Positions 4,589-56,895 of a stretch of 64,000 nt of DNA are shown one piece after another. The notes beneath the pieces are model-generated. The model did no database searches. It saw nothing but the letters and a program-made list of their open reading frames with translations, and was not told where the DNA came from. The DNA is taken from assembly GCA_902538155.1 (NCBI GenBank), contig CACBDX010000001.1, positions 19,301 to 83,300 of the forward strand. The letters run 5' to 3'. The position numbers and the translations under genes are program-made. The stretch is from an uncultured Alphaproteobacteria bacterium. Lineage in GTDB: Bacteria > Pseudomonadota > Alphaproteobacteria > HIMB59 > GCA-002718135. Position 1 is the first letter of the stretch, and the number at the start of each line of letters is the position of its first letter.

Positions 4589-5332
4589 TTACTGATGAAG
4601 AATCTGACTTAAAAATAACTTTGTACGATCACTCTCTGGATTATTAAAAAATTTATCTGGGCTAGCTTCCTCAACAATCTTACCTTCATCCATAAACACC
4701 ATTCTATCAGCAACTGTTTTAGCAAAACCCATTTCGTGAGTAACAACAATCATAGTCATTCCACCATTTGCCAAGTCAACCATAACATCTAAAACTTCTT
4801 TAATCATTTCAGGATCTAGAGCTGAAGTTGGTTCATCAAAAAGCATGATGTTCGGATTCATTGCAAGAGATCTAGCAATTGCAACTCTTTGTTGTTGACC
4901 ACCAGATAATTGACCAGGATACTTATTGGCTTGTTCAGGAATTTTTACTATTTCTAACTGTCTCATAGCCAGTTCCTCTGCTTCTGCCTTTGGCATTTTT
5001 TTAACCCAAATTGGAGCTAGTGTTATATTTTCTTTTACAGATAAATGAGGGAATAAATTAAATTGCTGGAATACCATTCCAACTTCTTTTCTAACATTAT
5101 CAATATTTTTTAAATTTCCTGTTAACTCAATTCCATCAACAACAATTGAACCTTCTTGGTGCTCTTCCAATCTATTAATACATCTGATCATTGTAGATTT
5201 ACCAGAACCAGAGGGGCCACAAACTACAATTCTTTCTTTCTTCTTAACTTCAAGATTTACATCTTGTAATACATGAAAATCTCCAAACCATTTGTTGACA
5301 TTTTTTAATGAAATTATTGATTCTTCACTCAT
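4589..5332 (-). CDS. aapP: general L-amino acid ABC transporter ATP-binding protein
   Basis: 247 aa. Walker [10 protein letters not shown], signature [13 protein letters not shown], Walker [13 protein letters not shown]. Confidence 0.9.
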
Positions 5333-5333
5333 T

Positions 5334-6467
5334 TTAATCAGCCCCCATATTAATACCTGTTTTTAATTTCTTTTCCAAATACAAACTGTATCTAGACATT
5401 CCAAATGTGAATATAAAAAATACCAAACTAACGAAAAAGTAAATTTCATAAGATAAACCTAACCAATTAGTATCCGCTAAAGTACCTCTCCCAATACCTA
5501 ATAAATCTAATATTCCTACAATTATAACTAAAGTTGTGTCCTTAAATAAACCTATAGATGTATTGACAATTGGTGGTATAGAAATTCTAATAGCTTGAGG
5601 AAGTATTATTAATAAATTCATTCTCCAATAAGACATCCCAAGTGATTTAGCAGCTTCATATTGACCAGGAGGTATTGCCTGCAGCCCTCCTCTTATAACC
5701 TCTGCCATATAAGCAGATTGAAATAAAGTAACTGCAACAAGTACCCTTACCAAACCATCCATATCTATTCCTTCAGGTAAAAATAGAGGAAGCATTACCA
5801 TTCCAAAGAATAATAAAGTTATAAGAGGAACACCTCTAATAAACTCAATAAATAATGTGCACATCATGCTTATAACTGGCAATTTAGATCTTCGGCCTAA
5901 AGCCAACATAATTCCAATAGGAAAAGCTAATGCAATTCCAGTACAACCCAACACAAGTGTTACTAGAAGACCACCCCATTTGTTAGTAGAGACTTCAGTA
6001 AATCCCAATCCACCATTAAGTAAAAAATAAGCAATAACAGGAAAAATGTATGTAAAATATAAGAAGTATTTTCTATATGGAAGTTTTGTATACAAAAGAG
6101 GTAGCAGCGCAAAAGCTAGCATAATATACGCTAAATTAACTCTCCAAACCTCAACCTTTGGATAAAATCCATAAATAAATTGATAAAACCTTACATATAT
6201 AACTGCCCAACAAGCTCCCCCATTTTCAGGATCTAAATTTCGTGAACACATTTCTTGGTTAGTAATTTGTTCACCAAGATAATTATATTTAAAATCAGCT
6301 GAAAATATTGTCCAATCTAAAATCCAAGGAATAAACTGATACAAACAATAAACAACAAATAGAGTTATTAATGAGTTTGTCCAATTGAAGAATAAATTAA
6401 TTCGTAACCAACCAATAATACCTGTTGTTGCTACTGGTGGTTTTCTAACTTCATTCATTTCGCTCAT
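5334..6467 (-). CDS. aapM: general L-amino acid ABC transporter permease
   Basis: 377 aa polytopic protein of the polar amino-acid permease type ([13 protein letters not shown]). Sits in the aapJQMP order. Confidence 0.85.
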
Positions 6468-8857: not shown

Positions 8858-10018
8858 ATGAAAATAAAAACAAAATTAACAAAAATAGGCAGAAATCCTC
8901 TTAAACAAAAAGGTTTTATCAATCCTGGCACCTATAAAGGTTCTACAATGATCTTTAATACATATAAAGATTACTTAAACGATATTAAAAATTTTGATGA
9001 TAGAACAACATATTATGGAATAAATAAAAATCCATTTCATAAGCAATTAGAAGAGAGTATTTCTTTTTTATATAACTGCAATGATACAGTATTATCACCA
9101 TCAGGATTAGCCTCTATAGTTATTCCTTTTTTTACTTTTTTAAAATCTGGTGATGAAGTTTTAATAAATGATAGTGTTTATAGTCCTACCAGAACTTTTT
9201 GTGAAGACATTCTTAAACAGTATAATGTTAAAATAAAATATTTTCATCCCACAAAAAATATTAATAGTTTTCAGAAATTAATTAACAATAATACTAAGCT
9301 AATTTATTTAGAATCTCCAGGTACAGCAACTTTTGATATTATTGATATACCTTTCATTACAAAAATTGCTAAAAAAAACAAAATACCAACTGTTATGGAT
9401 AATACTTGGGCTTCACCATTATTTTGTAATCCAATTAAATTAGGAATTGATATTATTATTGATGCTGGAACTAAATATATAAACGGCCACTCAGATGTAT
9501 TAATTGGTTTTGTTTCGTCTAATAAAAAATATTCCAAAAAAATAAGAACAGCTTCAAAAACTTTAGGTATATGTCCTGGTTCAGAAGAAGTTTATTTAGC
9601 AATTAGAGGATTGCCAACACTTGAAATTCGAATGAGAGAAATTGAAAAAAATGCTTTGTTAATGGCAAAATATTTACTCGATCATGATCTTGTATCTGAT
9701 GTATTTCATCCAGCATTGCCGCACACAAAAAATCATAAAATATGGAAAAGAGATTTCTCTGGTAGCACAGGCTTATTTTCATTTATGCTGAAAAGGAAAT
9801 ACTCAAACAATCAAATTGAAAAATTTTTTAATAAACTTAATATATTCAAATTGGGATACAGTTGGGGTGGATTTGATAGTCTCATTACCTTTCCTCCATT
9901 AGATAAAAGAGAGTTTAAAAATAGAAATACTGGAACTTTAATTAGATTATATTGTGGATTGGAAGATATTGATGATCAAATAAAAGATATTAAAAATGCA
10001 TTAAAAATTTTAAATTAA
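8858..10018 (+). CDS. metC: cystathionine beta-lyase (PLP-dependent, Cys/Met metabolism family)
   Basis: The ORF track starts at TTG 8852; the ATG at 8858 is more likely. The family pattern TKYINGHSDVLIG contains the PLP-binding Lys. Confidence 0.8.
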   Translation: MKIKTKLTKIGRNPLKQKGFINPGTYKGSTMIFNTYKDYLNDIKNFDDRTTYYGINKNPFHKQLEESISFLYNCNDTVLSPSGLASIVIPFFTFLKSGDEVLINDSVYSPTRTFCEDILKQYNVKIKYFHPTKNINSFQKLINNNTKLIYLESPGTATFDIIDIPFITKIAKKNKIPTVMDNTWASPLFCNPIKLGIDIIIDAGTKYINGHSDVLIGFVSSNKKYSKKIRTASKTLGICPGSEEVYLAIRGLPTLEIRMREIEKNALLMAKYLLDHDLVSDVFHPALPHTKNHKIWKRDFSGSTGLFSFMLKRKYSNNQIEKFFNKLNIFKLGYSWGGFDSLITFPPLDKREFKNRNTGTLIRLYCGLEDIDDQIKDIKNALKILN

Positions 10019-11182: not shown

Positions 11183-11709
11183 ATTTTTAATTGAGGATAT
11201 ATTTCAGAAAATAATTTAGCTCCTTTTGAACAATTATCAATCCAATCATTATTTGAATTTTCATTTGCATAATCAGAAATATATTTAAAACATTTAAATC
11301 TAATATTGTATAATTTGCATACTTTAGCAAAAGAGTAAGCTTCCATATCAACAATATCACAATCTATTTCTACTGATGATTGAACAAAACTATCTCCTGA
11401 TGCACATATATACCCCTCATTAGAATATGTAATTATTGATATAGGATCAAAAGGAGTTTCACCTAATTTAAAGTTCATTAAACCTCTTGCATCCATATCT
11501 CTTTGAACAAACTGGGTGCATTCTACTAATCCTGATAAGTTTTGCTTTGTTGAACCAGCTGTTCCATAATTAATTATTTCATTAGGTTGAAATTTTGAAA
11601 TTAATTCCATAATTTTGATTGTAGCATTTATCTTTCCCACACCTGAATAGTGGAAATCTTTAAGATTTGGAGTTTCTTCTTTAAGTGCTGCAATAAAAAT
11701 TTGCCCCAT
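11179..11709 (-). CDS. compact MTA/SAH-nucleosidase-like (PNP_UDP_1 family) nucleosidase
   Basis: 176 aa. Motifs SGVGKINA, INYGTAGS, SGDSFV, DMEAYSFAKVC and ISDYAN parallel the Pfs/MtnN blocks. Shorter than the roughly 230-aa canonical enzyme. Confidence 0.65.
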   Translation of the reverse strand: MGQIFIAALKEETPNLKDFHYSGVGKINATIKIMELISKFQPNEIINYGTAGSTKQNLSGLVECTQFVQRDMDARGLMNFKLGETPFDPISIITYSNEGYICASGDSFVQSSVEIDCDIVDMEAYSFAKVCKLYNIRFKCFKYISDYANENSNNDWIDNCSKGAKLFSEIYPQLKI

Positions 11710-12539
11710 TAATTTGGTCCAATTTGTTTTATAATTTTTTTTGTAACTTTTGTTAAATCTTTAATCGTAGGTTTTAGTAATTGCAATCTATCATATGTTT
11801 TAGGATTATTTTTGAGATTTTTTCTCAAAGCTTCCCCAAATGTCATTCTAATTTCAGTGCCAATATTTAGTTTTGCTACTTTTGTTTTTCTTGCTAGTTT
11901 TTTTCTTTGCTCTACGGGAATGCCGCTGCTACCATGAAGAACTAAAGGGATTTTTGTTTTTGATTCAATTAAATTAATTTTGTTGAAATCAATACTTGCT
12001 TTTTTTGAAGTTTGTAAATGGGTATTACCAACTGAAATTGCCATTGCATCAATATTACTTTTGTTTGCAAAAGATACTGCATCTTCAATATTAGTACCTT
12101 CTGAAATTTTACCATTATCATAACCTACAAAACCTATTTCTCCCTCAACAGAAATATTATATTTGTGAGCTCTTGAAGCAATTTTATTACTAATTTTTAT
12201 ATTTTCTTTTAAAGTTAATTTAGAACCATCAAACATTACAGAAGTAAAGCCACTATCAATCCCTTCATAACATTCATCTAAAGTATATCCATGATCAACA
12301 TGACAACAAATATTCGTTTCTGTTTGGCTTGCTAAGTATCTAAACATTTTTCCTAATATAGAAATTGGTGTATGCGCTCTACATGAAGGGCCAGCTTGCA
12401 ATATAATCGGAATTCCAGTTTCATCAGCGGCTTGAGTAAAAGCTAAGGCATCATCCCAGCCTAGTACAACTAAACCTGCTACAGCATAATTATTTTTATT
12501 TGCATCATTTAAAATTTTTTTTAAATTTACAGCTGTCAT
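11709..12539 (-). CDS. class II ketose-bisphosphate aldolase family protein (IolJ/KbaY/Fba-like)
   Basis: 276 aa. Motifs HVDHG, GNTHL and LVLHGSSG match class II F_bP_aldolase. Confidence 0.8.
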   Translation of the reverse strand: MTAVNLKKILNDANKNNYAVAGLVVLGWDDALAFTQAADETGIPIILQAGPSCRAHTPISILGKMFRYLASQTETNICCHVDHGYTLDECYEGIDSGFTSVMFDGSKLTLKENIKISNKIASRAHKYNISVEGEIGFVGYDNGKISEGTNIEDAVSFANKSNIDAMAISVGNTHLQTSKKASIDFNKINLIESKTKIPLVLHGSSGIPVEQRKKLARKTKVAKLNIGTEIRMTFGEALRKNLKNNPKTYDRLQLLKPTIKDLTKVTKKIIKQIGPN

Positions 12540-14374: not shown

Positions 14375-14716
14375 TTATTTATTTTTCATATCAATAAAGT
14401 CAGCATCATATTTAAAAGGATCAATTGAATCTATACACCCAATATTTATTGCTGCTCCATTTGGATCACTTCTTCTATAATGATGAGTATAGATGCCACA
14501 AATCTTACAAAAAAAATGTTCAGCAATCATTGTATTAAATTTGTAAGAAGTTAAGTTTTCTTTTCCTTTAAGAATATTTATTGCTTCTTTAGGGACCATA
14601 CACATTTTTGCGTTTTTTCTTATACAAATAGAACAGTTACACTGTTTAATAATTTCTAAGTCTGTTAAAACTTCTAATTGAACCGCTCTACAATGACAAT
14701 TTAAATTATATTTCAT
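14375..14716 (-). CDS. GFA/CENP-V family Cys-rich zinc protein (glutathione-dependent formaldehyde-activating enzyme-like)
   Basis: 113 aa. Cys pattern CHC..CNCSIC..FCKICG. Lies 4 nt upstream of iolC. Confidence 0.7.
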   Translation of the reverse strand: MKYNLNCHCRAVQLEVLTDLEIIKQCNCSICIRKNAKMCMVPKEAINILKGKENLTSYKFNTMIAEHFFCKICGIYTHHYRRSDPNGAAINIGCIDSIDPFKYDADFIDMKNK

Positions 14717-14764
14717 TTTATTTAACTATATTATAATATTTAATATAATTAAAGTTAATAAAAT

Positions 14765-15385
14765 ATGAACGAAAGCATGATTCAAGGTCAAATTATACGA
14801 CCATTTTCACCAGCTATAGGCAAATATAAATTATCAGATGATACAATAACTACACTTAACAATCATATTGATGAAATATTGAAAGATGAAAATAAAATTG
14901 ATGAATTATACCATGGCAAACAATTAGCAGGTGAAATTAAATATGAAATTAGATTAACAAAAGAATTTATTGATCAAAATTTAAAAGATGTTCTTTATAA
15001 ATTTGTATTTAATTTTGTTAAATCAACATTACAAAAAGAAATTAAGAAATTTGATTTAAAATCTAGTTGGGCTGTTTGTCAGTTTGAGAGTGACTATAAT
15101 CCAATCCATTGGCATGATGGCCATTTGTCAGGAGTAATGTACACAAAAATGCCAAAGGACTTAGGCTCATCATACAAAGCTCAAAATAAGAATGGAAAAA
15201 TCGCATTTATACATGGATCGACACAACTTTTAGTTTCATCCGTTTATGATGTAAAGCCCGAGGTTGGAGATTTATTTATATTTCCAAGTTATATGATGCA
15301 TACAGTCTATCCGTTCTTTTCTGATGAGGAAAGAAGATCAGTTTCTTTTAATGCATTCATAGATGAAGATGCTGCAAAATTCTAA
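14765..15385 (+). CDS. putative 2OG-Fe(II) oxygenase superfamily protein (TIGR02466-like)
   Basis: 206 aa. Contains HWHDGHLSGVMY, LFIFPSYMMHTVYPF and RRSVSFNAF. Confidence 0.6.
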   Translation: MNESMIQGQIIRPFSPAIGKYKLSDDTITTLNNHIDEILKDENKIDELYHGKQLAGEIKYEIRLTKEFIDQNLKDVLYKFVFNFVKSTLQKEIKKFDLKSSWAVCQFESDYNPIHWHDGHLSGVMYTKMPKDLGSSYKAQNKNGKIAFIHGSTQLLVSSVYDVKPEVGDLFIFPSYMMHTVYPFFSDEERRSVSFNAFIDEDAAKF

Positions 15386-15390
15386 TATTT

Positions 15391-15407
15391 GAAATAATTC
15401 AAACATT
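15391..15407. repeat. imperfect 17-nt copy of the tRNA-Arg T-arm (possible relic att site)
   Basis: GAAATAATTCAAACATT here versus GAAATGATTCGAACATT at 21184-21200. Same orientation, 15/17 identical, and both mismatches are G in the tRNA versus A here. Confidence 0.4.
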
Positions 15408-15463
15408 ATTACTTACTATATTGGAATATCATTTTCTTAATAATATTTAAATTTAGATTAAAA

Positions 15464-15649
15464 CTATAAAGCTAAATACGTAAACGGCGCCATAAATTCA
15501 AATAGTTTAAATATTAAAAATAAAATTGATGCAATAAATAAGGCAAAGATTAGTAATAGTTTTCCAAAATCAAGGTTTTTAAAAACAAATGAAAATAGTT
15601 GAAAAAATGTTTCAATTCTAGAAATAAAACTTTTTATAAAATTAATCAT
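15464..15649 (-). CDS. small membrane protein, SxtK/DUF5989-like (carbamoyltransferase-associated)
   Basis: 61 aa with one TM segment and a C-terminal APFTYLAL. This resembles the ..APFIYTLF tail I recall for DUF5989. Overlaps the carbamoyltransferase by 8 nt. Confidence 0.5.
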   Translation of the reverse strand: MINFIKSFISRIETFFQLFSFVFKNLDFGKLLLIFALFIASILFLIFKLFEFMAPFTYLAL

Positions 15650-17387
15650 TCTGATAAATTTTAAAATTACCGATATACATTAAGTCACAATTTGATCTTA
15701 AAAAAGTTGAAATTGCTTTTATTGGATTATCAACAATTGGTTCTCCCTTTAAATTTAATGAAGTATTCAGTAAAAGAGGTATATTTGATAAATTAAAAAA
15801 ATTTTTTATTAAATTATAATATAAACTATTATCGGCTTCTTCTACTAATTGTATTCTACAGGAATTATCTACATGCAAAACTCCTTCAAGTTTATTAGTA
15901 TTTTTTTTATTGTCGTAAGCAATAACACTCATATATTTGTAACTATTTTTAAATTTACTATCGATTTCAAAAAATTCTTCAGCCTTTTCATATAAAATGG
16001 ATGATGCAAATGGTTGGTAAGACTCTCTATATTTAATAACATTATTTATTTTTTGAGATAATTTTTTATTATCAGGTCTTGCTAATATCGATCTATTCCC
16101 AAGAGCTCTTTTTCCAAACTCTAGTTTACCCTGAAACCAACATATTATTTTATCTTTAAGTAAATAATTTGCAGCATCTGAAAGTAATTCTTTGGTAGTA
16201 TTAAATTTAGTGTAGCTAATTTTTAGATCTTTTAGAGTATCTTCAATGAATTCATTATCAAAAGAAGGACCTAAATATACATTTTGATTTAATATATTTT
16301 CATTTTTTTCTATTACATTATTCCAAGCCCACAATGAAGCACCTATAGAACCACCAGAGTCTGAAGGGCAGAAATTAATATAGATGTTTTTAAATTTAGA
16401 ATTTTTAAATGACTCATTATTTGCTTTACAATTTAAATGTACACCTCCTGATAAACAAATATTATCTGAAGGAAAAATTTCATATGCATGATTAGATTGT
16501 CTTTCAATTATGTCTTCTGTGATTTTTTGAGTAGAGTAAGCAATGTGTGCATATTTTTTAGATTTATCATTAGAAAGAACGAGATCTTTATTTAAAAATT
16601 CAGTGTTAGGTGTTCTAGGATCTCCTAGTAAATTAGTAAGTTTATTTGAAAAATTATTATATAGACTAAATTGATATTCAAAATAATCCATATTTTGATT
16701 AAAAATTTTTTTGTCTGAAGTTGATATGACTTTATTTAATTCATTATCGAAGGAATTATTACCATAAGCAGACATACTCATGACTTTATTTTCCCCTTCA
16801 TTTATTTGATGCCCAAGAAAAGACGTCATTGTTGAATAAAATAAACCTAAAGATTGAGGAAATAAAATTTCATCTAGTAATTTAATTTTATTTTTTTCTC
16901 CTGACCATATAGAAAAACTTTGATCTTCTCCAATACCATCATTAACCATGATACAACTATGACTTAGGTTATTCGTATAATAAATACTAGAAGCATGCGA
17001 TAAGTGATGTTGACAAAATAATATTTTATCTGAAGAAAATTTTAATTTTTTAACAATATTGGTTTTTGTCCATATTTTTTCTGATAACCATCTTTTCATT
17101 TGTGAAACAAAAAAACTTCTTGATTTAGGAAAATATTCTATTGAAGAATTTAAGATACGAAGAAATTTTTTAAGAGGTTTTTCGTAAAAAACAATGTAAC
17201 TTATATCAGAAATTTTAAGATTATTTGTATTTAAACACCACTCAATTGATCTTGAAGGAAATGATGAATCACCTTTTATTCCAGTAAAACGCTCTTCTTG
17301 GACTGCGGATATTATTTTACCATTTTTAACTAAAGAGACAGAGGAGTCATGGAAGTAACACGATATTCCAAGGACATATTTATTCAT
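15642..17387 (-). CDS. NodU/CmcH-family carbamoyltransferase
   Basis: 581 aa. The N-terminus GISCYFHDSSVSLVKNGKIISAVQEERFTGIKGDSSFP is typical of the family. Confidence 0.85.
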   Translation of the reverse strand: MNKYVLGISCYFHDSSVSLVKNGKIISAVQEERFTGIKGDSSFPSRSIEWCLNTNNLKISDISYIVFYEKPLKKFLRILNSSIEYFPKSRSFFVSQMKRWLSEKIWTKTNIVKKLKFSSDKILFCQHHLSHASSIYYTNNLSHSCIMVNDGIGEDQSFSIWSGEKNKIKLLDEILFPQSLGLFYSTMTSFLGHQINEGENKVMSMSAYGNNSFDNELNKVISTSDKKIFNQNMDYFEYQFSLYNNFSNKLTNLLGDPRTPNTEFLNKDLVLSNDKSKKYAHIAYSTQKITEDIIERQSNHAYEIFPSDNICLSGGVHLNCKANNESFKNSKFKNIYINFCPSDSGGSIGASLWAWNNVIEKNENILNQNVYLGPSFDNEFIEDTLKDLKISYTKFNTTKELLSDAANYLLKDKIICWFQGKLEFGKRALGNRSILARPDNKKLSQKINNVIKYRESYQPFASSILYEKAEEFFEIDSKFKNSYKYMSVIAYDNKKNTNKLEGVLHVDNSCRIQLVEEADNSLYYNLIKNFFNLSNIPLLLNTSLNLKGEPIVDNPIKAISTFLRSNCDLMYIGNFKIYQND

Positions 17388-18115
17388 ATCATAGATCGAG
17401 GATCGTATGTATTAAATTTGTAATTTTTTTTAAAAAACACTTTATTTATTGGAATAAAAATGAAAAATATTAATGCAAGTATTAAATCTCCAATTTTTGT
17501 CCAAATTTTTCTCGTATTAGAAAGTAAATCAGTTTTAAATCGAAACCATTTAATATAAAGATAAGATTTATATATTCCTTTAACACCGTTCTTTCGTCTC
17601 TTTTCTAACTCTTTTTTTGCATATAAAACATGATGACCTTCCTCTTTAGCTATTAACGAGAATAGAGCTCTTGTTTCAGAATTAAAATTTTTATTATTCG
17701 AGAGTTTTGTAAAATATTTCTCTGCTGCAGCTTCTGATATCATTACAAAATTAATAAAATCAAGCTCATTTAATTCACTGTAAATTGGTTTTTCTCCAAT
17801 GAAATTTAGATATCTTATTCTTTCGCCAATTTCAGCAATACCAGAAACATTAGCGGAATTATTATTAGAATTATTAATTAAATTTTTGGCATGATTAAAA
17901 AATAATTGCGCGTGCCTGAATTCATCTATGGCGTGATTTAAATACCCTTTTTTTAATTTATTAGTTGTAGTTAATTCAGCAGCCGCAAGCATATCTAAAG
18001 CACTTCCAAATTCAGCTAAACCAAAATTATTCAAAAAATCAGATTCTTGATTATTTAAGGAATTATTTTTTTTATTAATTTTTTTAAATATGGATTTGAA
18101 ATTAAATGATGCCAT
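17384..18115 (-). CDS. ferritin-like di-iron (2x ExxH) protein with C-terminal membrane anchor
   Basis: 243 aa. Contains AEFG..DEFRH and SEAAAE..EEGHH, then the TM segment IGDLILALIFFIFIPI. Confidence 0.55.
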   Translation of the reverse strand: MASFNFKSIFKKINKKNNSLNNQESDFLNNFGLAEFGSALDMLAAAELTTTNKLKKGYLNHAIDEFRHAQLFFNHAKNLINNSNNNSANVSGIAEIGERIRYLNFIGEKPIYSELNELDFINFVMISEAAAEKYFTKLSNNKNFNSETRALFSLIAKEEGHHVLYAKKELEKRRKNGVKGIYKSYLYIKWFRFKTDLLSNTRKIWTKIGDLILALIFFIFIPINKVFFKKNYKFNTYDPRSMI

Positions 18116-18130
18116 TAAAACTTAGTTATA

Positions 18131-19606
18131 TTATCCTAAGTGATGATCATCACCTGGGTCGACATTTGGATTTGGATTAACATTTGGATCTTTTTTTGGA
18201 TCCTGTCCACCTATAGTACATGTCCAATTATCAGGGCAGATTATATATGGAATTACTATATCTGCATTACAATTCTCACCTAAATCATATTTTCCTTCAT
18301 CATAATCATCTTCATGCTGTTCATTCTCATCATGAGCATGAGTATGAGTACATTTACTTGTATTTGTTTCTTGTACTTTAATAGATATATTACCAAAATT
18401 TGGATTAATACAAGGATCTCCATAGGCATTTGTTATAGACGGAAGAATATTAGTTATAGGAGTTTCAAACATATTTTGGACATCTTCAACATTTGAAATA
18501 TTAATATTTTGTAGTTTCGTGTCAGCATTCTCAGAAAAGAATCTAAATTTACTAACATTTGTAGCGCCACCATTAACCACATCTAGAACATTATTATTTT
18601 CTTTTAGCACTCCTAATTTTGCATCAGTACCTTGAGAAATTATAGCATCATAAAAATTTTCACCTTCATTTTTTATATTAATGATAACTTGTGAATTTGT
18701 CTTTCTTAAAGTTTTAAAATAAAATCCTCCTTCAAGAAGACAGGCTTTGATGAATTGAGTACCATCTGCATCAACATAATAAGAATTTATAATAATTTTT
18801 GTATTATTTTTTAAATAAAAAGATGTCTTTTTATCTAATATAAATTGGCACCCTGTTGAAGATTGTTTACACTCCAATAAACTATTAGTGGAAATTTTGT
18901 TTCTTTTTTTAAGTTGTGTATCGTCTTGAAAAAAACCTTTTTTTCCTGATTTTTGCACTTTACCTATTACCTCATTTGTATCATCAACATTGTAATTAGC
19001 TTTTTTACTTTTATTATTTTGTCCATTCTCTGTTTCAGTTTCATTGTCTGCTACTTCTTGACTAGCTTCTGTTATACTATCAGCTACTAACGCTTCACTT
19101 ATGACCTTAAGAGATCTTTTTATTACATCTTCATCATAAATAACTAAACCTGTTTCTAGATCATCAAAAGCTAACCAAGCATTAATTTGAAGATCGTTTG
19201 GAATATTTTGATTACTCATTTCATCTAAAATATAAGGATTAATTATATTTATAATTATTAATAATTCACTAATTATATCAAAAGCTGAGTTCCAATCATC
19301 TGCTTCGCCGGTAGCAATAGAAATTAATCTCTGTGTCGATTTTAGTAATTTTTTTCTTTCATCTTCTTTTTCATCTTCAGCTAATTTTTTTGAAATTACA
19401 CTTGCATATTTTGCTATTGCTTTTTGTAAATCTTTAGAAACATTTTCATTAATAACTTTTGTAAGGCTTTGTTTCAAATTTTCACTTAATTCATCATGGG
19501 AGTCAGCCTTAGCAAAGTTTACATTAATAAAAATAACTGAAAAAAACAAAAAAATAAAAACTTGTTTTAATCTACTTACGAACAAATTCATTAATACAAC
19601 TTTCAA
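18131..19606 (-). CDS. exported protein of unknown function, His/Asp/Cys-rich C-terminus
   Basis: 491 aa. Signal-like FIFLFFSVIFINVNFAKA (the true start may be the Met at 19591), a central beta-rich region faintly FecR-like, and a tail CTHTHAHDENEQHEDDYDE..CPDNWTCTIGG..NPNVNPNPNVDPGDDHHLG. Confidence 0.5.
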   Translation of the reverse strand: MKVVLMNLFVSRLKQVFIFLFFSVIFINVNFAKADSHDELSENLKQSLTKVINENVSKDLQKAIAKYASVISKKLAEDEKEDERKKLLKSTQRLISIATGEADDWNSAFDIISELLIIINIINPYILDEMSNQNIPNDLQINAWLAFDDLETGLVIYDEDVIKRSLKVISEALVADSITEASQEVADNETETENGQNNKSKKANYNVDDTNEVIGKVQKSGKKGFFQDDTQLKKRNKISTNSLLECKQSSTGCQFILDKKTSFYLKNNTKIIINSYYVDADGTQFIKACLLEGGFYFKTLRKTNSQVIINIKNEGENFYDAIISQGTDAKLGVLKENNNVLDVVNGGATNVSKFRFFSENADTKLQNINISNVEDVQNMFETPITNILPSITNAYGDPCINPNFGNISIKVQETNTSKCTHTHAHDENEQHEDDYDEGKYDLGENCNADIVIPYIICPDNWTCTIGGQDPKKDPNVNPNPNVDPGDDHHLG

Positions 19607-20180
19607 TTTTAATCAAAGATTCTACAATACAGTAATTATTATCCTTAAATAAAATTGAATTTATTGTAAAATATTTTCTAAGTAAAGTGTCATTTGATAT
19701 ATTATTGAAAATTAATAGTAAATTTTGATCATAATGATTAAAATATAAATTTAATAATCTTTCATGAAGAATGTTGATTAAAGGATGAAACATTTGATTA
19801 TAAGTAATCCTTTTTTTTTCATTGCATATTAATTGGTCTCTAGAACAAGATAATAAAAAATAATCAGCCTCAAATAATATTGATTCTAAATAATATTTAT
19901 CAACAAAAATTATTTTTCTATTTGTATTTAGTTGAGTAATCTCTTCATAAATATCAGCTTGATCAAAGATCGAATTTATATTGTCAGAATAGCTAATTAG
20001 ATTTAAATTTTTCTTATCCAAATAATTTTTAAGTGAAGATTGATCTATTTCAATTACACTATTGGTCATTGAATTAATAAAATATACATCATTTTGATTA
20101 GCAAAAACTGTTTTTGAAACAAAAAATATTAAAAATAATAATCTAAAATTTTTTAAATACTTCATCATGGCCATTTTCAT
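19572..20180 (-). CDS. exported hypothetical protein
   Basis: 202 aa. Signal peptide LLFLIFFVSKTVFANQ. No family recognised. Confidence 0.45.
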   Translation of the reverse strand: MKMAMMKYLKNFRLLFLIFFVSKTVFANQNDVYFINSMTNSVIEIDQSSLKNYLDKKNLNLISYSDNINSIFDQADIYEEITQLNTNRKIIFVDKYYLESILFEADYFLLSCSRDQLICNEKKRITYNQMFHPLINILHERLLNLYFNHYDQNLLLIFNNISNDTLLRKYFTINSILFKDNNYCIVESLIKIESCINEFVRK

Positions 20181-21153
20181 TTAAATGATAGTCAGTTTTA
20201 AGAAAACTAGTTTTTGGATTATCTAGTTGATCAATTAAAATATAATTGATCCCACCTTTTTTAAATTTTTTAGAAAGGATTTCTAAATTATTCTTCATTT
20301 TATTATAATAGTAGTCATAATCATTAAATAAATTTAAAAATTCTTCATTTTTAAAACCATAATTAAATTTCTTTAACTGGTTTTTATCAAAATACCAGGC
20401 AGGTGGTAATATAATAAATTCATATTGTTTAATAGAATTTGTATCAATAAATAATTTATATTGATCTACTATTGAATATATTAAATATTCTATTTCATCA
20501 TCAGTTAGAAAATTAAAATATAAATTATACGGTTGACCTTTTCTTTTTTTTGAAAATTTTAAAATTTTTTTTATATATTCGTATGATCTAAAATATTTAC
20601 TAATCTCAATATCAAATTTTTTGTTTTTTATTCTCCAATTTTCATCCCAACTCAACACAAATCTATCAATATCTACCCATATATTTAAAAAGAAAAATAT
20701 TTTTTCATATTTTTGAAAGTTAAAGTCATTATTAACTTTTTTAAAATTATTTAAACTTTGCAATCTAAAAGTTGGTGAAGCTAGTATTTCTAAATGAGCA
20801 TTCTTATTAAAAGTTAGATATTTATGAAGAAAATGATCATCAAAATTAATCCCATATCCCATTGCTTGGCTATCTCCAATTAATAAATAAGTGTTTTGAT
20901 TATTTTTAATCTTATTATTTTTTACTCTTAAGCCATAATCATCTATTGAATAAGATGCTTTAGGATGACCAGTATATTTCGCACAAAAATTTTTATTTTT
21001 TGGCAATGTTTCTATTTCATTTTCAATATAGACTGGGAAAAATGAATAGCAATTTTCATCAACAACTCTAATAAATATTTCCAGAATAAAAAAGGAACAA
21101 AACAAAAGAAGAAAAAATCTTAATAAAAATTTAGAAAATATATTATTTATCAT
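20143..21153 (-). CDS. N-terminally anchored SGNH/GDSL-like hydrolase/acyltransferase-fold protein
   Basis: 336 aa. TM segment FLLRFFLLLFCSFFILEIF, block I LLIGDSQAMGYG, and C-terminal TDYHLNENGH (a DxxH-like block V). Confidence 0.5.
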   Translation of the reverse strand: MINNIFSKFLLRFFLLLFCSFFILEIFIRVVDENCYSFFPVYIENEIETLPKNKNFCAKYTGHPKASYSIDDYGLRVKNNKIKNNQNTYLLIGDSQAMGYGINFDDHFLHKYLTFNKNAHLEILASPTFRLQSLNNFKKVNNDFNFQKYEKIFFFLNIWVDIDRFVLSWDENWRIKNKKFDIEISKYFRSYEYIKKILKFSKKRKGQPYNLYFNFLTDDEIEYLIYSIVDQYKLFIDTNSIKQYEFIILPPAWYFDKNQLKKFNYGFKNEEFLNLFNDYDYYYNKMKNNLEILSKKFKKGGINYILIDQLDNPKTSFLKTDYHLNENGHDEVFKKF

Positions 21154-21173
21154 AATAAATAATTACATTTAGG

Positions 21174-21249
21174 TGGCGCGCCCGAAATGATTCGAACATT
21201 TGACCTACCGCTTAGAAGGCGGTTGCTCTATCCACTGAGCTACGGGCGC
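21174..21249 (-). tRNA. tRNA-Arg (TCT)
   Basis: The reverse complement GCGCCCGTAGCTCAGTGGATAGAGCAACCGCCTTCTAAGCGGTAGGTCAAATGTTCGAATCATTTCGGGCGCGCCA folds as a full cloverleaf with anticodon loop CTTCTAA. Confidence 0.9.
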
Positions 21250-21296: not shown

Positions 21297-21602
21297 TTAA
21301 TGTGTCCAAGGTTCTTTTCTATTTGTATCAAAATTTGAAGCATAACTTTTAGGTTTAATTTTTCTTTGCTTTGGTTCTTCGACAAAATATTGATAATTAT
21401 TTTTTTTTGCCCATTCAATAGCTTGTTCTTTAGTATCAAAAAAAAGTTTTATCTGAGATTTGGTGTCTAATGAACTATTCCACCCCATTAAAGAATCTTT
21501 TACTTTTTCAGCTTCAGAAATATATTCCGCTAACCATAATTTTGTTTTTTTAAAACCTGATTGCATAGAAGTTTTAGAAGGTTTATAAATTTTTATAGTC
21601 AT
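21297..21602 (-). CDS. ETC complex I subunit conserved-region protein (NDUFS4-like)
   Basis: 101 aa. Contains IYKPSKTSMQSG, MGWNSS and a C-terminal PWTH. Confidence 0.7.
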   Translation of the reverse strand: MTIKIYKPSKTSMQSGFKKTKLWLAEYISEAEKVKDSLMGWNSSLDTKSQIKLFFDTKEQAIEWAKKNNYQYFVEEPKQRKIKPKSYASNFDTNRKEPWTH

Positions 21603-27897: not shown

Positions 27898-29014
27898 AGC
27901 TTAACCTTTTTCTAAAAATTACATATTGCGATATTGCTAAAATATTTAGTAGTATAAATAAAATTACTCCTTCAGCTGCAGCATAACCATATTTCACTCT
28001 ACCCCAAAAATGATCAAAAATTTCTATTGTAACAACATCCATTGTATCTCCAGCAGAAGAAGTTTGCATAACAAAAATACTATTGAAAGCTTGAAAGGTA
28101 TTTATAAAACCAGTCAACATTAGAAAAAATATAATAGGCATTAATAGTGGTATGGTAATTTTCATAAATGTTTGCAATCTACTAGCTCCTTCAGCTTTCG
28201 CAGCCTCATATAAATCAGAGGGAATAATTGATAAACCCGCGAGTAAAATTATTGCATAGTAGCCAGTATAAGACCATATTCCATATAAGATTGATGACAT
28301 TAGAGCTAAACTTGGCCCAGCTAGTAGACCTTCTATTTTTATTCCAAATAAAACTTCGGTAATGGGTCTTTTATCAAATAACCACATTTGAGGCTCAAAA
28401 CCAAATACTCCTATTAGCTGATTTAAAAAAGAATTTTCAGCTTTACCAAATATTAAAAAAAATACTGCAGCACCCATTACTGCAGGAGTAATATAAGGAA
28501 ATAGTAAAATCATTTGAAAGAATTGTTTACCAGCTAGTTTTTGGTACAGAGCAAATGCTATTACTAATCCTAATCCAACCTCAAAAATTATAGTGAAAAA
28601 TGAATAATAAAAAGTATAAATAAGGGAGTAAAGATAGTCTTCATCACCTGTTAAAAGCATTTTTTCCCAGTTGATATTAATTAATATTATTCCAATAATT
28701 AATATTGCTAAAGATAAAAATGCTAAATAGATTTTACTTTTAACTTTATTTTTAAATTCACTCCACAATCCGTAACTCAATATCAACAATAATAATCCTA
28801 AAACAAATAACCAAAAAGCTGGTATGTCTCCAAGTATTCTTTGGTAATTCTCAAATCCTAAAAATCTCCCTTTAAAAACTTTCCACTTGTGTACACTCAT
28901 GTACATTCCAAAAAAAACAGGAAAAATTCCAAATAGACTGATTATTAAAACAGCAGGAAGAATTAATAGATATCCTGTAAGTTTTTCTGAATGATTTAAT
29001 AAGAATTTATTCAT
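27890..29014 (-). CDS. carbohydrate ABC transporter permease (MalF/UgpA-like, extended N-terminal half)
   Basis: EAA loop EAAKAEGASRLQTFMKITIP. The likely ATG at 29014 forms an ATGA-type overlap with the MOSC stop. Confidence 0.8.
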   Translation of the reverse strand: MNKFLLNHSEKLTGYLLILPAVLIISLFGIFPVFFGMYMSVHKWKVFKGRFLGFENYQRILGDIPAFWLFVLGLLLLILSYGLWSEFKNKVKSKIYLAFLSLAILIIGIILININWEKMLLTGDEDYLYSLIYTFYYSFFTIIFEVGLGLVIAFALYQKLAGKQFFQMILLFPYITPAVMGAAVFFLIFGKAENSFLNQLIGVFGFEPQMWLFDKRPITEVLFGIKIEGLLAGPSLALMSSILYGIWSYTGYYAIILLAGLSIIPSDLYEAAKAEGASRLQTFMKITIPLLMPIIFFLMLTGFINTFQAFNSIFVMQTSSAGDTMDVVTIEIFDHFWGRVKYGYAAAEGVILFILLNILAISQYVIFRKRLSYD

Positions 29015-29765
29015 TAATTTTAATAAGATCACCTTTATTTATTTTACCATCATTTAAAGGATCTAAATATATTCCTAAATTTATATGGTTGTATATTTTT
29101 TTTAGGTTTAAAGGAATATTAAGATTTATATCAGAAGTTTTGGGCTTAATGTTAGTTGCTGAACATCTGGGAATTTCTTTAATAACTTTAAATTTTATAT
29201 CACTGATTGATAAAACTTTACCTACCAGCTTCCTTTCTTCCCATTTATCTAAATCTTCTACATATATATTTCCTCTAAAACGCTCATGTTCAACTTGATG
29301 ATTAGATAGGTTTTCAAGGTCTTTAATACTGTTTAAATTTATTAATGATATTGATTTATTTGGCATTGTATCAAAAAAAGGATTCATATTATCTTTTAAT
29401 AAATTAATATTATTTATATTTGGTAAAATATCCTCAAGTTTACTACATAAGATTTTTACTTCATGTTGATTATCAATATCAGTTTTTAAAATTATTTTAT
29501 TTTCAAATTCTAGTATTAAAAAATTATCTTCTAATAAAAAATTATATTGATTTAATTCAGGATATTTTTTTAATGATAAAAATTTGTATATTTCTCGTTT
29601 TAAAGGATTATTTTTTATTAATTCTATATCTTTAAGATTAAGATTATTAGTGAAAGCAAATATTCGATCATTTTTTATACCAATATTTTTAATTATCTCT
29701 AAGTTATCTACATTATTGAAAGAAAGAGATTTTACAGGTGAAAAATATAGGTTTTTAATTTTCAC
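29007..29765 (-). CDS. MOSC-domain protein (YcbX/mARC-like, MOSC_N + MOSC)
   Basis: 252 aa. Contains FSPVKSL, NDRIFAF and the conserved Cys in IPRCSATNIKP. Confidence 0.7.
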   Translation of the reverse strand: MKIKNLYFSPVKSLSFNNVDNLEIIKNIGIKNDRIFAFTNNLNLKDIELIKNNPLKREIYKFLSLKKYPELNQYNFLLEDNFLILEFENKIILKTDIDNQHEVKILCSKLEDILPNINNINLLKDNMNPFFDTMPNKSISLINLNSIKDLENLSNHQVEHERFRGNIYVEDLDKWEERKLVGKVLSISDIKFKVIKEIPRCSATNIKPKTSDINLNIPLNLKKIYNHINLGIYLDPLNDGKINKGDLIKINE

Positions 29766-29777
29766 TTATATTAGCAT

Positions 29778-30476
29778 TTAAGTTTTTTTTAAAAAATACT
29801 GATCTAAAAATGAATCTAACCAATTTGATATATTTTTATTATATTTATAACGATAATAAAGTTGAACAAATATATTTTGAGCACCTTTGACGAATAATTT
29901 TTTAGGATTTTTTAATAACACTAAATACAGCCATCTCATATGAAGTTTAAAATTTACTTCTGGATGAAATTGGAGCGCATAACAATTTTGATATTTGAAA
30001 GCTTGATTATTAAAAATATCACCCCTTGCTAATAACTCGCAGCCTGTAGGAAGAGAAAATCCTTCAGAATGGAATTGAAAAAAAATTTTTTGAGAATTAA
30101 AAAGATTTTTTGCATTTTCAGTTGGTTCAATTTTATAAAAACCAATTTCTGAAAGTCCGTCTTTATTAGTTGTTATTTCTGAACCTAAACATTTAGCTAA
30201 TAACTGTGCTCCAAAACAAATTCCAAGATAAGGAATGTCAGTTTTTATAACTTTGTTTATCCATTCTAATTCTTTATTTATATATTCATCTTCATCGTTT
30301 ATGCTTCCTGGTGCACCAAATACAACTATAGCTGAGTATTGTTTAATATTTAAAGGAAGTTCTTCACCTAAAGGCGGTCTACATATTTCAGATACATATC
30401 CCCTATCTCTAAATTTATTTCCTACATCTCCTGGAACCGAAGTTTTTTGATGTAATACAAACAAAACCTTATTCAT
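29778..30476 (-). CDS. class I glutamine amidotransferase family protein
   Basis: 232 aa. Nucleophile elbow LGICFGAQLL and LQFHPE. Confidence 0.75.
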   Translation of the reverse strand: MNKVLFVLHQKTSVPGDVGNKFRDRGYVSEICRPPLGEELPLNIKQYSAIVVFGAPGSINDEDEYINKELEWINKVIKTDIPYLGICFGAQLLAKCLGSEITTNKDGLSEIGFYKIEPTENAKNLFNSQKIFFQFHSEGFSLPTGCELLARGDIFNNQAFKYQNCYALQFHPEVNFKLHMRWLYLVLLKNPKKLFVKGAQNIFVQLYYRYKYNKNISNWLDSFLDQYFLKKT

Positions 30477-30566
30477 ACTAAATTATTAATAATAAATATT
30501 TTATTAATATGAAAATATTATTTCATAAAAATTATAACTATTTTGTATATTAATCTAGATTGATAC

Positions 30567-30977
30567 TTATGTGACAAAATAATCAATATCTAAGATCTTT
30601 ATGTAAAACATAAGAGTAAAATAACCAAAATTCATCATTACAACAAAACTAATAAGCATATTGATCGATTTAGGGAGTGAATTTCCTAAAAAATCATCCC
30701 AAAAAACCTTTTCTAAATATAGAGCTAATTCAAAGTATATAAGTGTAATGATTGCAGCATTGAAGATTATTAAAGAAGTCAATCCATTAAGACTCAATAA
30801 ATAATTAATAAAAATTAATATCAAAAAAGAAAAAGAATAAATAAATAAATTTAATAAGATTTTTTTATTTTTTGAAAATTTTTTGAAAAAAATAATGTAT
30901 CTTGTGTTTAAAAATAACGAAATCAATATCGAGCTAAAAAAAGAAATAATTAATATTTTTGTTATTTGATATTCCAT
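30567..30977 (-). CDS. hypothetical integral membrane protein
   Basis: 136 aa, about 4 TM segments. No family recognised. Confidence 0.4.
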   Translation of the reverse strand: MEYQITKILIISFFSSILISLFLNTRYIIFFKKFSKNKKILLNLFIYSFSFLILIFINYLLSLNGLTSLIIFNAAIITLIYFELALYLEKVFWDDFLGNSLPKSINMLISFVVMMNFGYFTLMFYIKILDIDYFVT

Positions 30978-31026
30978 TTATATGTATTTTTTATATAACT
31001 AAAAAATATATAAGAAAAATAAGAAA

Positions 31027-36067: not shown

Positions 36068-37051
36068 ATGAAAACATTACTAATTTTTTTTACTACTTTA
36101 TTTATCTCTTTCTCAATCTATGCTGAGAAATTAACTATTTATACCTACGACTCTTTTGTTTCAGAGTGGGGTCCTGGGCCCATAATTGAAAAAATATTTG
36201 AAGAAAAATATAACGCAGATGTAGATTTTGTTGCTGTAGACAGTGCTGCAACATTATTGAATAAAGTTATTTTAGAAGGTGATACTTCTAAGGCAGATAT
36301 AGTTTTAGGTCTTGATATGAATTTATTTGATTTAGCTGAACAATCTGGGCTTTTTACATCTCATAATATCAAAGACATAAACAACTTAATTAATTTACCA
36401 TTAAAATGGGAAACTAATAAATTTGTTCCATATAATTATGGCTACTTTTCCTTTGTTTATAATGAAGCAAATTTAGAAACACCGCCAAAATCAATGGACG
36501 AGTTAATTAATTCTACTAATGCTAGAATTGTAATTCAAGACCCGAGAACCTCTACCCCTGGATTAGGATTATTAACTTGGATGAAAGCATTATATGGAGA
36601 TAAAGCTGGAGATGAATGGAAAAAATTAAATAAAAAAATTATTTCCGTTACCAAAGGTTGGACAGATGCCTATTATAATTTTTTTATGGCAGGAGAAGCT
36701 GACATGGTTTTAAGTTATACTACATCTCCAGCCGCACATATAATGTTTGAAGAAAGGTATGATATTCTTGCTACAACTTTTGAAGAGGGAAATTATATAA
36801 CAATTGAATTTGCAGGCATATTAAATAATTCACAAAATAAAGATTTAGCAAATAAATTTCTTAACTTTATGTTATCAGAAGAATTTCAATCAGTCATACC
36901 ATCAACAAATATTATGTATCCTATTACAAATATAAAAGATTTACCTGAAGCATTTGATAAATTAGATGTTCCTAACTTTATTCAAATGGATCCAAAAGAA
37001 ATTAATAAGAATAAAGAAAAATGGATTGATGAGTGGCTTAATGCCTCGTAA
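36068..37051 (+). CDS. thiB: thiamine/TPP ABC transporter periplasmic binding protein
   Basis: 327 aa with a signal peptide. It has an iron/thiamine SBP-family pattern and sits directly behind the TPP riboswitch. Confidence 0.8.
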   Translation: MKTLLIFFTTLFISFSIYAEKLTIYTYDSFVSEWGPGPIIEKIFEEKYNADVDFVAVDSAATLLNKVILEGDTSKADIVLGLDMNLFDLAEQSGLFTSHNIKDINNLINLPLKWETNKFVPYNYGYFSFVYNEANLETPPKSMDELINSTNARIVIQDPRTSTPGLGLLTWMKALYGDKAGDEWKKLNKKIISVTKGWTDAYYNFFMAGEADMVLSYTTSPAAHIMFEERYDILATTFEEGNYITIEFAGILNNSQNKDLANKFLNFMLSEEFQSVIPSTNIMYPITNIKDLPEAFDKLDVPNFIQMDPKEINKNKEKWIDEWLNAS

Positions 37052-37056
37052 ATAAA

Positions 37057-38652
37057 TTGTATTATAAATATAATTATTCAGTATTATTTATTTTTGGATT
37101 AATTATCCTATTACCTTTCATAGGTATTTTTTCAAAAATTAACTTTGATTTAAACAATATTTATAATTTTTTTCAAAATTCATACACGCATCGTTTAATC
37201 TATTTTTCATTATATCAAGCTTTTCTTTCAGCACTATTAAGTTGTTTTTTAGCTATTCCATTCGCATTAGCTTTAAATAGACATAAGAATTTAAAAATTA
37301 TTAAATTTATCATTTCACTTTGTGGGTTTTGCTTTGTGATACCAACAATCTTAATTGTGTTTGCAGTTATTAAACTCTTTGGAAATAATGGTTTTTATAA
37401 CTCATATTTTAATTTGTACGAGAATTTATCAATAGAGACAATTTTTGGAATAAAAGCAATTTTAATTGCCCATATACTTCTAAATACACCATTTGCGACC
37501 CGATTATTTTTTCAATCCTTAAATAGTATTCCTTCAAAATATTATGAAATATCTAGTTCTCTAAACATTACTTTTTTTGGTAATCTTCTTAAATTAGAAA
37601 TACCTTATATAAGGCAAAATTTTTTTACTGTGTTCTCAATAATATTCTCTCTTTGTTTTTTAAGTTTTGCAATAGTAATGGCATTAGGTGGTGGACCTAT
37701 GTATTCAACAATTGAGGTGGCAATTTATCAATATGCACTTTTTGAACTAAATTTTAATAAAGCAATTTTACTCAGTTTTTTACAAATTTTTATATGTTTA
37801 TTTTTTTTATTTATTGGTTTTTACAAATTAAAAGGTTCAAATTTTTTTGAAATAGATCAAATTAATTTTATTCATCCTCATAAAGAATACAAAGCTATAA
37901 AAATTATAGATTTTTTAATAATTGTATTTTTTTCGATTTTTCTTTTTTCTCCAATACTTTCTGTAATTTATCATTTTATAAATAATGGTATTTATTTTTC
38001 TTTAATTAATGAAAAATTTTTAGAATCTTTTTTTAATTCTCTTATTATTTCAATTACTACAGGAATAATTGTTAGTATATCTGGATTTATAATTTCATCT
38101 ATACTTGTAATAAATTATAAAAATATGATTTTTCAGCAATCAATTTTTTTAATAAGCTCTTCAATAATAATTATTTCTCCAATTATATTTAGCCTTGGTT
38201 ATTTTATTGTATTAGGTGAATTAAGATATCTGCATTTTTTTAAATATTTTGTGATAGTTTTGATAAATTGTCTTTTCTTATTACCCTTTTCTATATTAAT
38301 ACTTTTTAATAATCTGAAAAATATATTTTTAAATTTTGAAAATTTTCAACAAACTTTCCGAATAAGCATTAGAAATTATTTTATTATCTTGCTACCAATG
38401 ATTAAGAAAAATATAATTTTTGTTTTTGCATTTTCGACGGTTATTACTTTTGGTGATTTTACAATAATATCATTTTTTAAAGATCAAAACTTTGATACCT
38501 TGCCATCTTACTTATATAAATTGATTAGTGTCTATAAATTTAACGAAGCTTCTTTTGTAGCTGGTGTAATTTTAATACTAAGTATGATTATATTTTTATT
38601 AATTGATAATTTAAATTACCAAGGCAAGTCAGCCATTAAAACGTGCAGATAA
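37057..38652 (+). CDS. thiP: thiamine ABC transporter permease (duplicated two-domain type)
   Basis: 531 aa, about 12 TM segments, TTG start in the track. Follows thiB. Confidence 0.75.
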   Translation: MYYKYNYSVLFIFGLIILLPFIGIFSKINFDLNNIYNFFQNSYTHRLIYFSLYQAFLSALLSCFLAIPFALALNRHKNLKIIKFIISLCGFCFVIPTILIVFAVIKLFGNNGFYNSYFNLYENLSIETIFGIKAILIAHILLNTPFATRLFFQSLNSIPSKYYEISSSLNITFFGNLLKLEIPYIRQNFFTVFSIIFSLCFLSFAIVMALGGGPMYSTIEVAIYQYALFELNFNKAILLSFLQIFICLFFLFIGFYKLKGSNFFEIDQINFIHPHKEYKAIKIIDFLIIVFFSIFLFSPILSVIYHFINNGIYFSLINEKFLESFFNSLIISITTGIIVSISGFIISSILVINYKNMIFQQSIFLISSSIIIISPIIFSLGYFIVLGELRYLHFFKYFVIVLINCLFLLPFSILILFNNLKNIFLNFENFQQTFRISIRNYFIILLPMIKKNIIFVFAFSTVITFGDFTIISFFKDQNFDTLPSYLYKLISVYKFNEASFVAGVILILSMIIFLLIDNLNYQGKSAIKTCR

Positions 38653-56892: not shown

Positions 56893-56895
56893 TTT

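Follow-up and report, generated by a model that had tools for sequence, protein, structure and literature searches.

How did a compact block of six genes come to lie directly behind a tRNA gene in a streamlined marine bacterium? The 64-kb stretch of DNA considered here, called the window over its whole length, comes from a tiny-genome, marine alphaproteobacterium of the order HIMB59 (AEGEAN-169), family GCA-002718135, genus AG-337-I02. In the window, an intact tRNA-Arg(TCT) gene is followed on its 3′ side by the six genes and then by a short partial repeat of the tRNA, which an earlier reading of the sequence (the original prediction) took for the possible trace of a relic tRNA-targeted genomic island. 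To our knowledge, abundant, genome-streamlined ocean bacteria like HIMB59/AEGEAN-169 contain almost no recognisable mobile elements, and flexible islands of streamlined ocean bacteria are usually attributed to homologous recombination alone. We conclude that the segment 15390-21218 very likely remains from an element that integrated site-specifically into tRNA-Arg(TCT). The predicted island is supported by its junction when compared with empty sites, by its presence in only 1 of 15 close relatives, by a well-preserved distal tRNA copy on a metagenome scaffold (L091) and by the putative attachment site (attP) of a phage (L095).

The repeat was found as predicted. The 17-mer GAAATGATTCGAACATT at 21184-21200 lies inside tRNA-Arg(TCT), where it corresponds to tRNA positions 66 to 50 of the T-arm, and it recurs in the same orientation as GAAATAATTCAAACATT at 15391-15407, beginning 6 nucleotides (nt) past the stop codon (15383-15385) of a 2-oxoglutarate-Fe(II) oxygenase (2OG) gene. 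The two copies agree at 15 of 17 positions; at the other two, the tRNA has G and the distal copy A. Between them, on the 3′ side of the tRNA, lie exactly the six genes, all on the tRNA strand and ordered c6, c5, c4, c3, c2, c1 from the tRNA outward: c6 starts 20 nt past the tRNA, and c1 ends 48 nt from the tRNA remnant that contains the distal repeat. The claim that the repeats bracket the cluster precisely thus proved correct.

The prediction had also warned that a short, AT-rich repeat might match by chance. When ≤2 mismatches are allowed and both strands are counted, the expectation for the 17-mer is 0.04 matches per window, and the sole hit besides the pair itself was the T-arm of tRNA-Pro. 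When all 17-mers of five tRNAs were compared with the window in direct, inverted, reversed and complemented form, the distal repeat was the one non-tRNA hit. Under a second-order Markov null for 64 kb in direct orientation, 0.085 matches are expected for the tRNA-Arg 17-mers and 0.35 for those of all five tRNAs; the chance of a hit ≤10 kb away on the tRNA 3′ side is roughly 0.01-0.05. With 0.085-0.35 matches expected, the repeat by itself is only nominally significant, suggestive and not compelling, and the warning was justified.

The similarity, however, outruns the 17-mer. In an alignment it covers tRNA positions ~41-66 plus the terminal A, ~27 nt in all, and the remnant (15390-15416) differs from the tRNA by four substitutions, all from GC to AT, by a 1-nt insertion and by a 9-nt deletion of the GC-rich acceptor-stem strand GGGCGCGCC. 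Its local alignment score is 34, compared with a maximum of 29 among 7,412 other segments of the window. The repeat was therefore predicted at the right place, but its length of 17 nt did not hold: the remnant spans ~27 nt with a 9-nt deletion, and the original attachment (att) core, as shown below, comprised 45 nt.

The comparison drew on 80 loci from GTDB species genomes that surround the neighbouring acyl-CoA dehydrogenase (ACAD) gene, and ~25 of them represent relatives. As close relatives we counted the 15 with an ACAD identity of 95-98% at the amino acid (aa) level and an assembled region; these are GORG-Tropics single-cell genomes. The genomes L001 (AG-891-P06), L002 (AG-453-C10), L003 (AG-893-K02) and L015 (AG-893-I03) are classified as o__HIMB59; f__GCA-002718135; g__AG-337-I02, genomospecies 1.A, L020 represents a different species group of the same genus AG-337-I02, and L023 belongs to the genus MarineAlpha5-Bin3 (Table S1, PMC10734472). 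The tRNA-Arg(TCT) sequence showed 0 mismatches among all relatives having the tRNA (L001-L024), which comprise two genera.

The locus occupies the same position in all relatives and occurs in four states, with neither insert, with 2OG, with the cluster, or with the cluster and 2OG. The tRNA-Arg gene is followed by 2OG and then by a GFA gene in L002-L007, L010, L016, L022 and the distant L023, and by GFA directly in L008, L009, L011, L013-L015, L020, L021 and L024. The cluster lies between tRNA-Arg and GFA in L001, and between tRNA-Arg and 2OG, with GFA beyond, in the window. Thus, ten cluster-free relatives (nine plus the distant L023) have 2OG directly beside the tRNA, which is the empty site that the original prediction had proposed to look for, and nine others have GFA in that place. 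The plus strand of the empty site with 2OG reads ...AAATTTTAA TATT TGGCGCGCCC GAAATGATTCGAACATT TGACC..., that is, the 2OG stop codon, 4 nt and the tRNA 3′ end. The corresponding plus strand of the window reads ...AAATTCTAA TATT T GAAATAATTCAAACATT ATTACTTAC.... Since TAA-TATT is common to both, the repeat occupies the place of the original tRNA end, minus 9 nt of the acceptor stem. Wherever 2OG is present in the relatives L002-L024, it ends 4-13 nt from the CCA of tRNA-Arg.

Coverage of the window by the close relatives confirmed the polymorphism. The flanks were present in 15/15, the region 15.5-21.0 kb in 1/15 (L001) and the 2OG gene in 8-9/15. The cluster was missing, with clean junctions at the CCA, in 14/15 close relatives and in 4/4 more distant ones (L020, L021, L023, L024), so that the possibility of all relatives carrying it, which would have spoken against an island, does not apply. 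The assignment of 2OG as the flank of the cluster is correct for the window and has to be refined for the locus, where 2OG itself is variably present. The insertion lies directly 3′ of the intact tRNA, with the island beginning at 21173, and its GC content is 24.0%, compared with 30.1% in the flanks. Among the relatives compared, no other cassette of equivalent function occupied the locus.

A scan of metagenomes with the carbamoyltransferase c2 as the query returned six contigs holding the same cluster. One of them, the Tara metagenome scaffold L091, encodes a c2 that is 90% identical at the nucleotide level and ends distally with ...TTTCTA CTAAGCGGTAGGTCAAATGTTCGAATCATTTCGTGCGCGCCA ATTAAA..., followed by GFA. 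This distal copy matches tRNA positions 32-76, from the anticodon loop to the CCA, at 43/45 positions. The two differences from the otherwise invariant tRNA mark the piece as a copy distinct from the gene; upstream of it there is neither similarity to the tRNA nor the 5′ half of a second one. GFA comes directly after the copy, as it does after the tRNA in cluster-free genomes. In L089, L090 and L092 the cluster is likewise followed by GFA, with only a vestigial tRNA piece, and the same is true for L001. The distal copies thus form a decay series from 43/45 positions in L091 through ~27 nt in the window to the vestiges in L001, L089 and L090, which bears out the predicted decay of the distal copy under AT-biased mutation. 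The distal spacer is shortened relative to L091 in the window, L001, L089 and L090, and this shared shortening shows a common ancestry of these four after integration. At the other end, c6 starts 20 nt past the tRNA in the window, L001, L089, L103 and L104. As a side observation, L091 contains a CCTTAAAT doublet ~50 nt upstream of its distal site (attR). Its GFA allele and that of L020 share 91% identity, but an assignment of the host lineage on this basis was rejected as unsafe, since close relatives exchange GFA alleles by recombination.

A search of IMG/VR with the tRNA 3′ end returned one contig, L095, of 36.6 kb. It contains an exact 45/45 copy of tRNA positions 32-76, CTTCTAAGCGG...GCGCGCCA, without the 5′ half of the tRNA, and ARAGORN detected no tRNA on the contig. 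A tyrosine integrase (PF00589, phrog_1) is encoded 1.1 kb from this segment. L095 and L099-L102 (35-37 kb) encode a terminase, a portal protein, an endolysin and a tail fibre. Since the exact segment is located near a tyrosine integrase in a phage lacking the tRNA, we assign the 45-nt piece from anticodon loop to CCA as the phage attP and thus as a putative recombinase substrate. The L091 repeat has the same boundary. On one side the core is flanked by five tandem ~10-nt GGTCNTNNNT motifs and on the other by two AAAAGGTAGCA motifs (5213-5300 and 5080-5110, minus-strand view), which may be arm-type binding sites of the integrase. All six contigs with the L095 integrase showed the attP arrangement of a free phage, and none of them contained an integrated copy of the phage. 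A shorter, 26-nt core pattern intended to match other phages with the att core hit only L095, and the L095 integrase is ≤28% identical to those of deposited phages.

The cassette also occurs in other lineages. In L081-L088, where c2 shows ~60% identity, it adjoins tRNA-Leu(CAA); in L081 a decayed but full-length copy of this tRNA (5609-5694) comes next, together with some duplicated flank. L082 and L087 have neither the tRNA-Leu copy nor the 473-aa gene that lies beyond. The GORG single-cell genome L096 has the cassette on the 3′ side of tRNA-Met, with a decayed, near-full-length tRNA-Met copy (~15861-15924) and some duplicated flank behind it. In L097 it lies between 152-nt direct repeats (9678-9829 and 15529-15680; 79% identical), a third, 61-nt copy of which is found at 16275, and a tyrosine integrase (16469-17479) is encoded 1.2 kb from the cassette beside a permuted transfer-messenger RNA (tmRNA) gene (17535-17848). 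L097 also contains a 66-nt repeat pair at 9056 and 16366. The homology of L081, L085, L096 and L097 to the window is confined to the cassette, and the duplicated pieces differ in kind between the loci.

With tRNA-Arg, tRNA-Leu, tRNA-Met and a tmRNA-linked integrase, the same cargo is thus found at four t(m)RNA-linked sites, which is consistent with a mobile history. It is conceivable, although we propose this only tentatively, that the cassette has repeatedly moved horizontally as the cargo of integrase-driven elements, whose targets are varied tRNA and tmRNA genes of several streamlined marine lineages, and that it is left behind without mobility genes after delivery in cis or in trans. If true, heterotrophic bacterioplankton, whose islands had been considered free of tRNA hallmarks, would acquire genes by a route resembling that of tycheposons.

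Searches for a recombination machinery were consistently negative. None of the six proteins matched an integrase in Pfam, NCBIfam or PHROGs, tblastn with the integrases of L095 and L097 gave no match in the window, and no integrase was found in the islands of L001, L089, L103 and L104. Profile searches and tblastn therefore agree with the prediction that no integrase is present. The six genes also lack a tyrosine recombinase, helicase or primase of the tycheposon type (Pfam, NCBIfam, PHROGs). Virion genes were not detected with PHROGs, in which only the carbamoyltransferase gave a match, in the auxiliary metabolic gene (AMG)/moron category; relatives of c2 were not found in IMG/VR, and PADLOC returned 0 hits to known defence systems for the six proteins.

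These observations would be explained by the following course of events. A circular element whose attP was a 45-nt tRNA copy reaching from the anticodon loop to the CCA would have been joined to the chromosomal tRNA by a tyrosine recombinase. The copy contributed by the element would then have completed a functional tRNA (attL), and the original 3′ part of the host gene would have been displaced by 5.8 kb, beside the gene that formerly abutted the tRNA (attR). The integrase and any other mobility genes would later have been lost, or they may never have been carried in cis, the integrase having acted in trans. Through GC-to-AT substitutions and the 9-nt deletion, attR would have decayed so that the island can no longer excise; with no integrase in any island copy, it is presumably immobilised. 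Today, it would represent a flexible block, probably gained and lost among close relatives through homologous recombination between conserved flanking sequences. We regard it as an immobilised relic because the integrase of an active integrative island is missing.

The GFA gene (14375-14716) occurs in two allele classes with ~80% protein identity, and in L001 and L090 GFA is a mosaic, A-like at the N-terminus and B-like in the rest. In genomes with 94-98% identity elsewhere, the GFA class goes along with whether or not 2OG is present, and the GFA of L021 contains an in-frame stop. An aldolase-like gene (11709-12539) near inositol-catabolism genes also occurs as two alleles, of 97% and 65% aa identity, among the close relatives, which points to allelic replacement by recombination. 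From the mosaic GFA and the allele swaps in neighbouring genes, we conclude that recombination is frequent at the locus. The 2OG family, phrog_81, is placed in the moron/AMG category of PHROGs. In the pair L023/L024, the 2OG indel is clean and begins directly after the CCA. The possibility that 2OG is a second, older att-bounded islet was rejected: the spacer between 2OG and GFA (14717-14764) contains no tRNA remnant, and its score of 12 was reached by 72% of null segments, so that a resemblance noted by eye was not significant. Other stretches of low GC content (20-23%) are located at 29001-31000, 37001-38000 and 56001-57000, the one at 29-31 kb being kept in 12-13/15 relatives.

Several observations weigh against a site-specific integration. 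The islands of the window, L001, L089, L103 and L104 contain no integrase, excisionase or replication gene, and with c6 beginning only 20 nt past the tRNA, any integrase must have been removed without trace or have acted in trans. The gene beside the island is 2OG in the window but GFA in L091, L001, L089 and L090, and this difference calls for either two integrations or a later reshuffling by recombination. L095 and the island share only the 45-nt core, which points to the use of the att site and not to delivery by L095; other taxa could have the same tRNA 3′ half and could be hosts of this phage. Finally, the tRNA copies in L096 and L081 are nearly full length instead of 45 nt and so may have arisen differently. 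Such near-full duplicates with flank are what a RecA-type single crossover would yield, and homologous recombination alone could have shaped the locus if the tRNA served as an anchor and the partial copy were a by-product, for example of a single crossover of a circularised donor, with no integrase ever involved. The lack of an integrase in every island copy, the recombination-rich region with its mosaic GFA and allele swaps, and the published view of HIMB59 islands as products of homologous recombination (PMC10734472) fit this explanation as well. Homologous recombination would, however, have no reason to stop where the L091 copy stops, namely at the boundary of the attP core of an integrase-bearing phage, and a double-crossover replacement would not duplicate the tRNA. 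We therefore consider an origin by recombination alone unlikely.

The cluster might also be ancestral and have been deleted repeatedly, the distal piece being what remains of a second tRNA-Arg gene. The diverged contig L092 (c2 76% identical at the nucleotide level, similar to the core divergence between species groups) has the cluster at the same locus, as would be expected in that case. Its absence with clean CCA junctions from 14/15 close relatives and from L020, L021, L023 and L024, the missing 5′ half of a second tRNA in L091, the GC content below that of the flanks and the occurrence of the cassette at three other t(m)RNA loci make repeated deletion distinctly improbable. That the similarity of a short, AT-rich 17-mer is fortuitous is hardly credible at all. 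The 0.35 matches expected per window for all tRNAs and all 17-mers are not negligible, and repeat length and mismatch threshold were picked after the match had been seen; yet the match lies exactly at the tRNA junction of the empty site, extends to ~27 nt with a score above that of every other segment, and has a 43/45 counterpart at the homologous place in L091. On these grounds, a chance match was ruled out, and site-specific integration into tRNA-Arg(TCT) remains the reading that we prefer. The features on which it is based are compiled in Table 1.

Table 1. Features of the tRNA-Arg(TCT) island and its borders in the window
Feature	Position	Strand	Basis
Intact tRNA-Arg(TCT), probable integration target	21174-21249	minus	ARAGORN; identity across L001-L024
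Putative attL core, tRNA positions 32-76, anticodon loop to CCA, 45 nt	21174-21218	minus	L095 45/45, L091 43/45
Probable decayed attR, leftover of the original tRNA-Arg 3′ part	15390-15416	minus	Alignment, junction, score test
Island body, ~5.76 kb	15417-21173	minus	Coverage by relatives, GC content
c6, N-terminally membrane-anchored SGNH/GDSL-fold protein (predicted)	20143-21153	minus	Alignment, structure model, Foldseek
c5, 202 aa, hydrophobic N-terminal segment (by eye), no family match	19572-20180	minus	
c4, 491 aa, hydrophobic N-terminal segment (by eye), low-complexity C-terminus, no family match	18131-19606	minus	
c3, 243 aa, sub-threshold di-iron-type matches	17384-18115	minus	Pfam
c2, O-carbamoyltransferase, NodU/TobZ/GdmN type	15642-17387	minus	Pfam, NCBIfam, PDB sequence matches
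c1, 61 aa, hydrophobic	15464-15649	minus	tblastn
Flanking 2OG-Fe(II) oxygenase, PF13759, phrog_81	14765-15385	plus	
Core flank, NDUFS4-like gene, 48 nt upstream of the tRNA in all relatives	21297-21602	minus	

The cargo most likely modifies a cell-envelope or secreted glycan, as judged from the following gene assignments. c2 matched PF02543 and PF16861 in Pfam as well as an NCBIfam model, and its sequence matches in the PDB were 7xb6, GdmN and TobZ. The c6 protein has an N-terminal helix, and its GDS and D-x-H motifs are invariant in the alignment. A structure model of c6 (predicted local distance difference test, pLDDT, 68.7; predicted template modelling score, pTM, 0.70) gave top Foldseek matches that were nearly all GDSL/SGNH esterases or acyltransferases, with weak scores. 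Among 5.8 billion proteins, only 39 belong to the c6 family, and c6 was accompanied by further cassette genes in every contig examined. c3 gave weak, sub-threshold Pfam matches to rubrerythrin and di-iron hydroxylase, has a hydrophobic C-terminal stretch by eye, and is 97-99% conserved between island copies. c1 is probably membrane-embedded, judging by eye from its translation; its identity in tblastn is 59-98% across L001 and L081-L092, and it was kept with the cassette in every lineage checked (L081-L094). The hydrophobic N-terminal segments of c5 and c4 are signal-like, and the two proteins may be secreted. Between island copies, c5 is 77-96% and c4 68-94% identical at the aa level, c4 being the most variable gene of the island, and this variability may reflect diversifying selection on exposed proteins. 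In close copies, c3, c2 and c1 are 95-99% identical, adjacent to c4/c5 at 68-96%.

The start codon of c6 and the 3′ end of tRNA-Arg are co-directional and 20 nt apart (21154-21173). Transcripts from the promoter of the tRNA or of the NDUFS4-like gene probably read through into the cassette. A scan of the island for promoters and terminators was uninformative, as it returned fewer promoter-like sites than were found in shuffled sequences.

Islands targeted to tRNA genes are textbook biology, so the value of the locus is in the example and not in the concept; the island is well supported, yet of a classical kind. It appears to be a clean, datable case of site-specific tRNA integration in a clade where such hallmarks were reported absent, and it combines an empty site, an att decay series, a candidate phage for the same 45-nt site and a conserved six-gene, envelope-type cassette. 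In 2002, Williams is said to have described that islands and prophages inserted by tyrosine recombinases at tRNA genes cross over in the anticodon loop and have an att core that extends to the tRNA 3′ end. The window island resembles such tRNA-targeted islands in its intact tRNA, the distal repeat of a 3′ segment, the position on the 3′ side, the empty sites, the atypical composition and the phage with an identical 45-nt attP. Unlike active representatives, it has no mobility genes, its attR is degraded, and its cargo begins 20 nt past the tRNA. cis-Mobilizable elements (CIMEs) are att-flanked blocks without recombination genes that are mobilised by a related integrative element. The island is likewise att-flanked and free of an integrase, and the attR of L091 is near-intact, whereas that of the window is too degraded to serve as a substrate.

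The tycheposons of Prochlorococcus comprise tRNA-adjacent cargo blocks separated by partial tRNAs and include integrase-less remnants (Hackl et al., bioRxiv 10.1101/2020.12.28.424599). A streamlined marine host and an island flanked by a full and a partial tRNA are common to both systems; in contrast to tycheposons, the window island contains no tyrosine recombinase or replication module, and its host is a heterotrophic alphaproteobacterium instead of a cyanobacterium; homology to tycheposon genes was not seen either, although no search aimed at it was made. Temperate pelagiphages encode tyrosine integrases and have 11-46 bp cores in SAR11 tRNA genes, including tRNA-Arg (bioRxiv 10.1101/410191). 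With its tyrosine integrase and a core that matches part of a tRNA, phage L095 is analogous to them, although its integrase is only distantly related (≤28%) to those of deposited phages and the island, unlike pelagiphages, is devoid of phage genes. The phosphate islands of HIMB59 have been described as lacking tRNA or insertion sequence (IS) hallmarks and as being exchanged probably by homologous recombination (PMC10734472). The window island shares with these phosphate/phosphonate islands the clade, the fixed position, the presence/absence polymorphism and the likely exchange by homologous recombination (PMC10734472); what distinguishes it from them is its tRNA border and the att remnant at its distal end.

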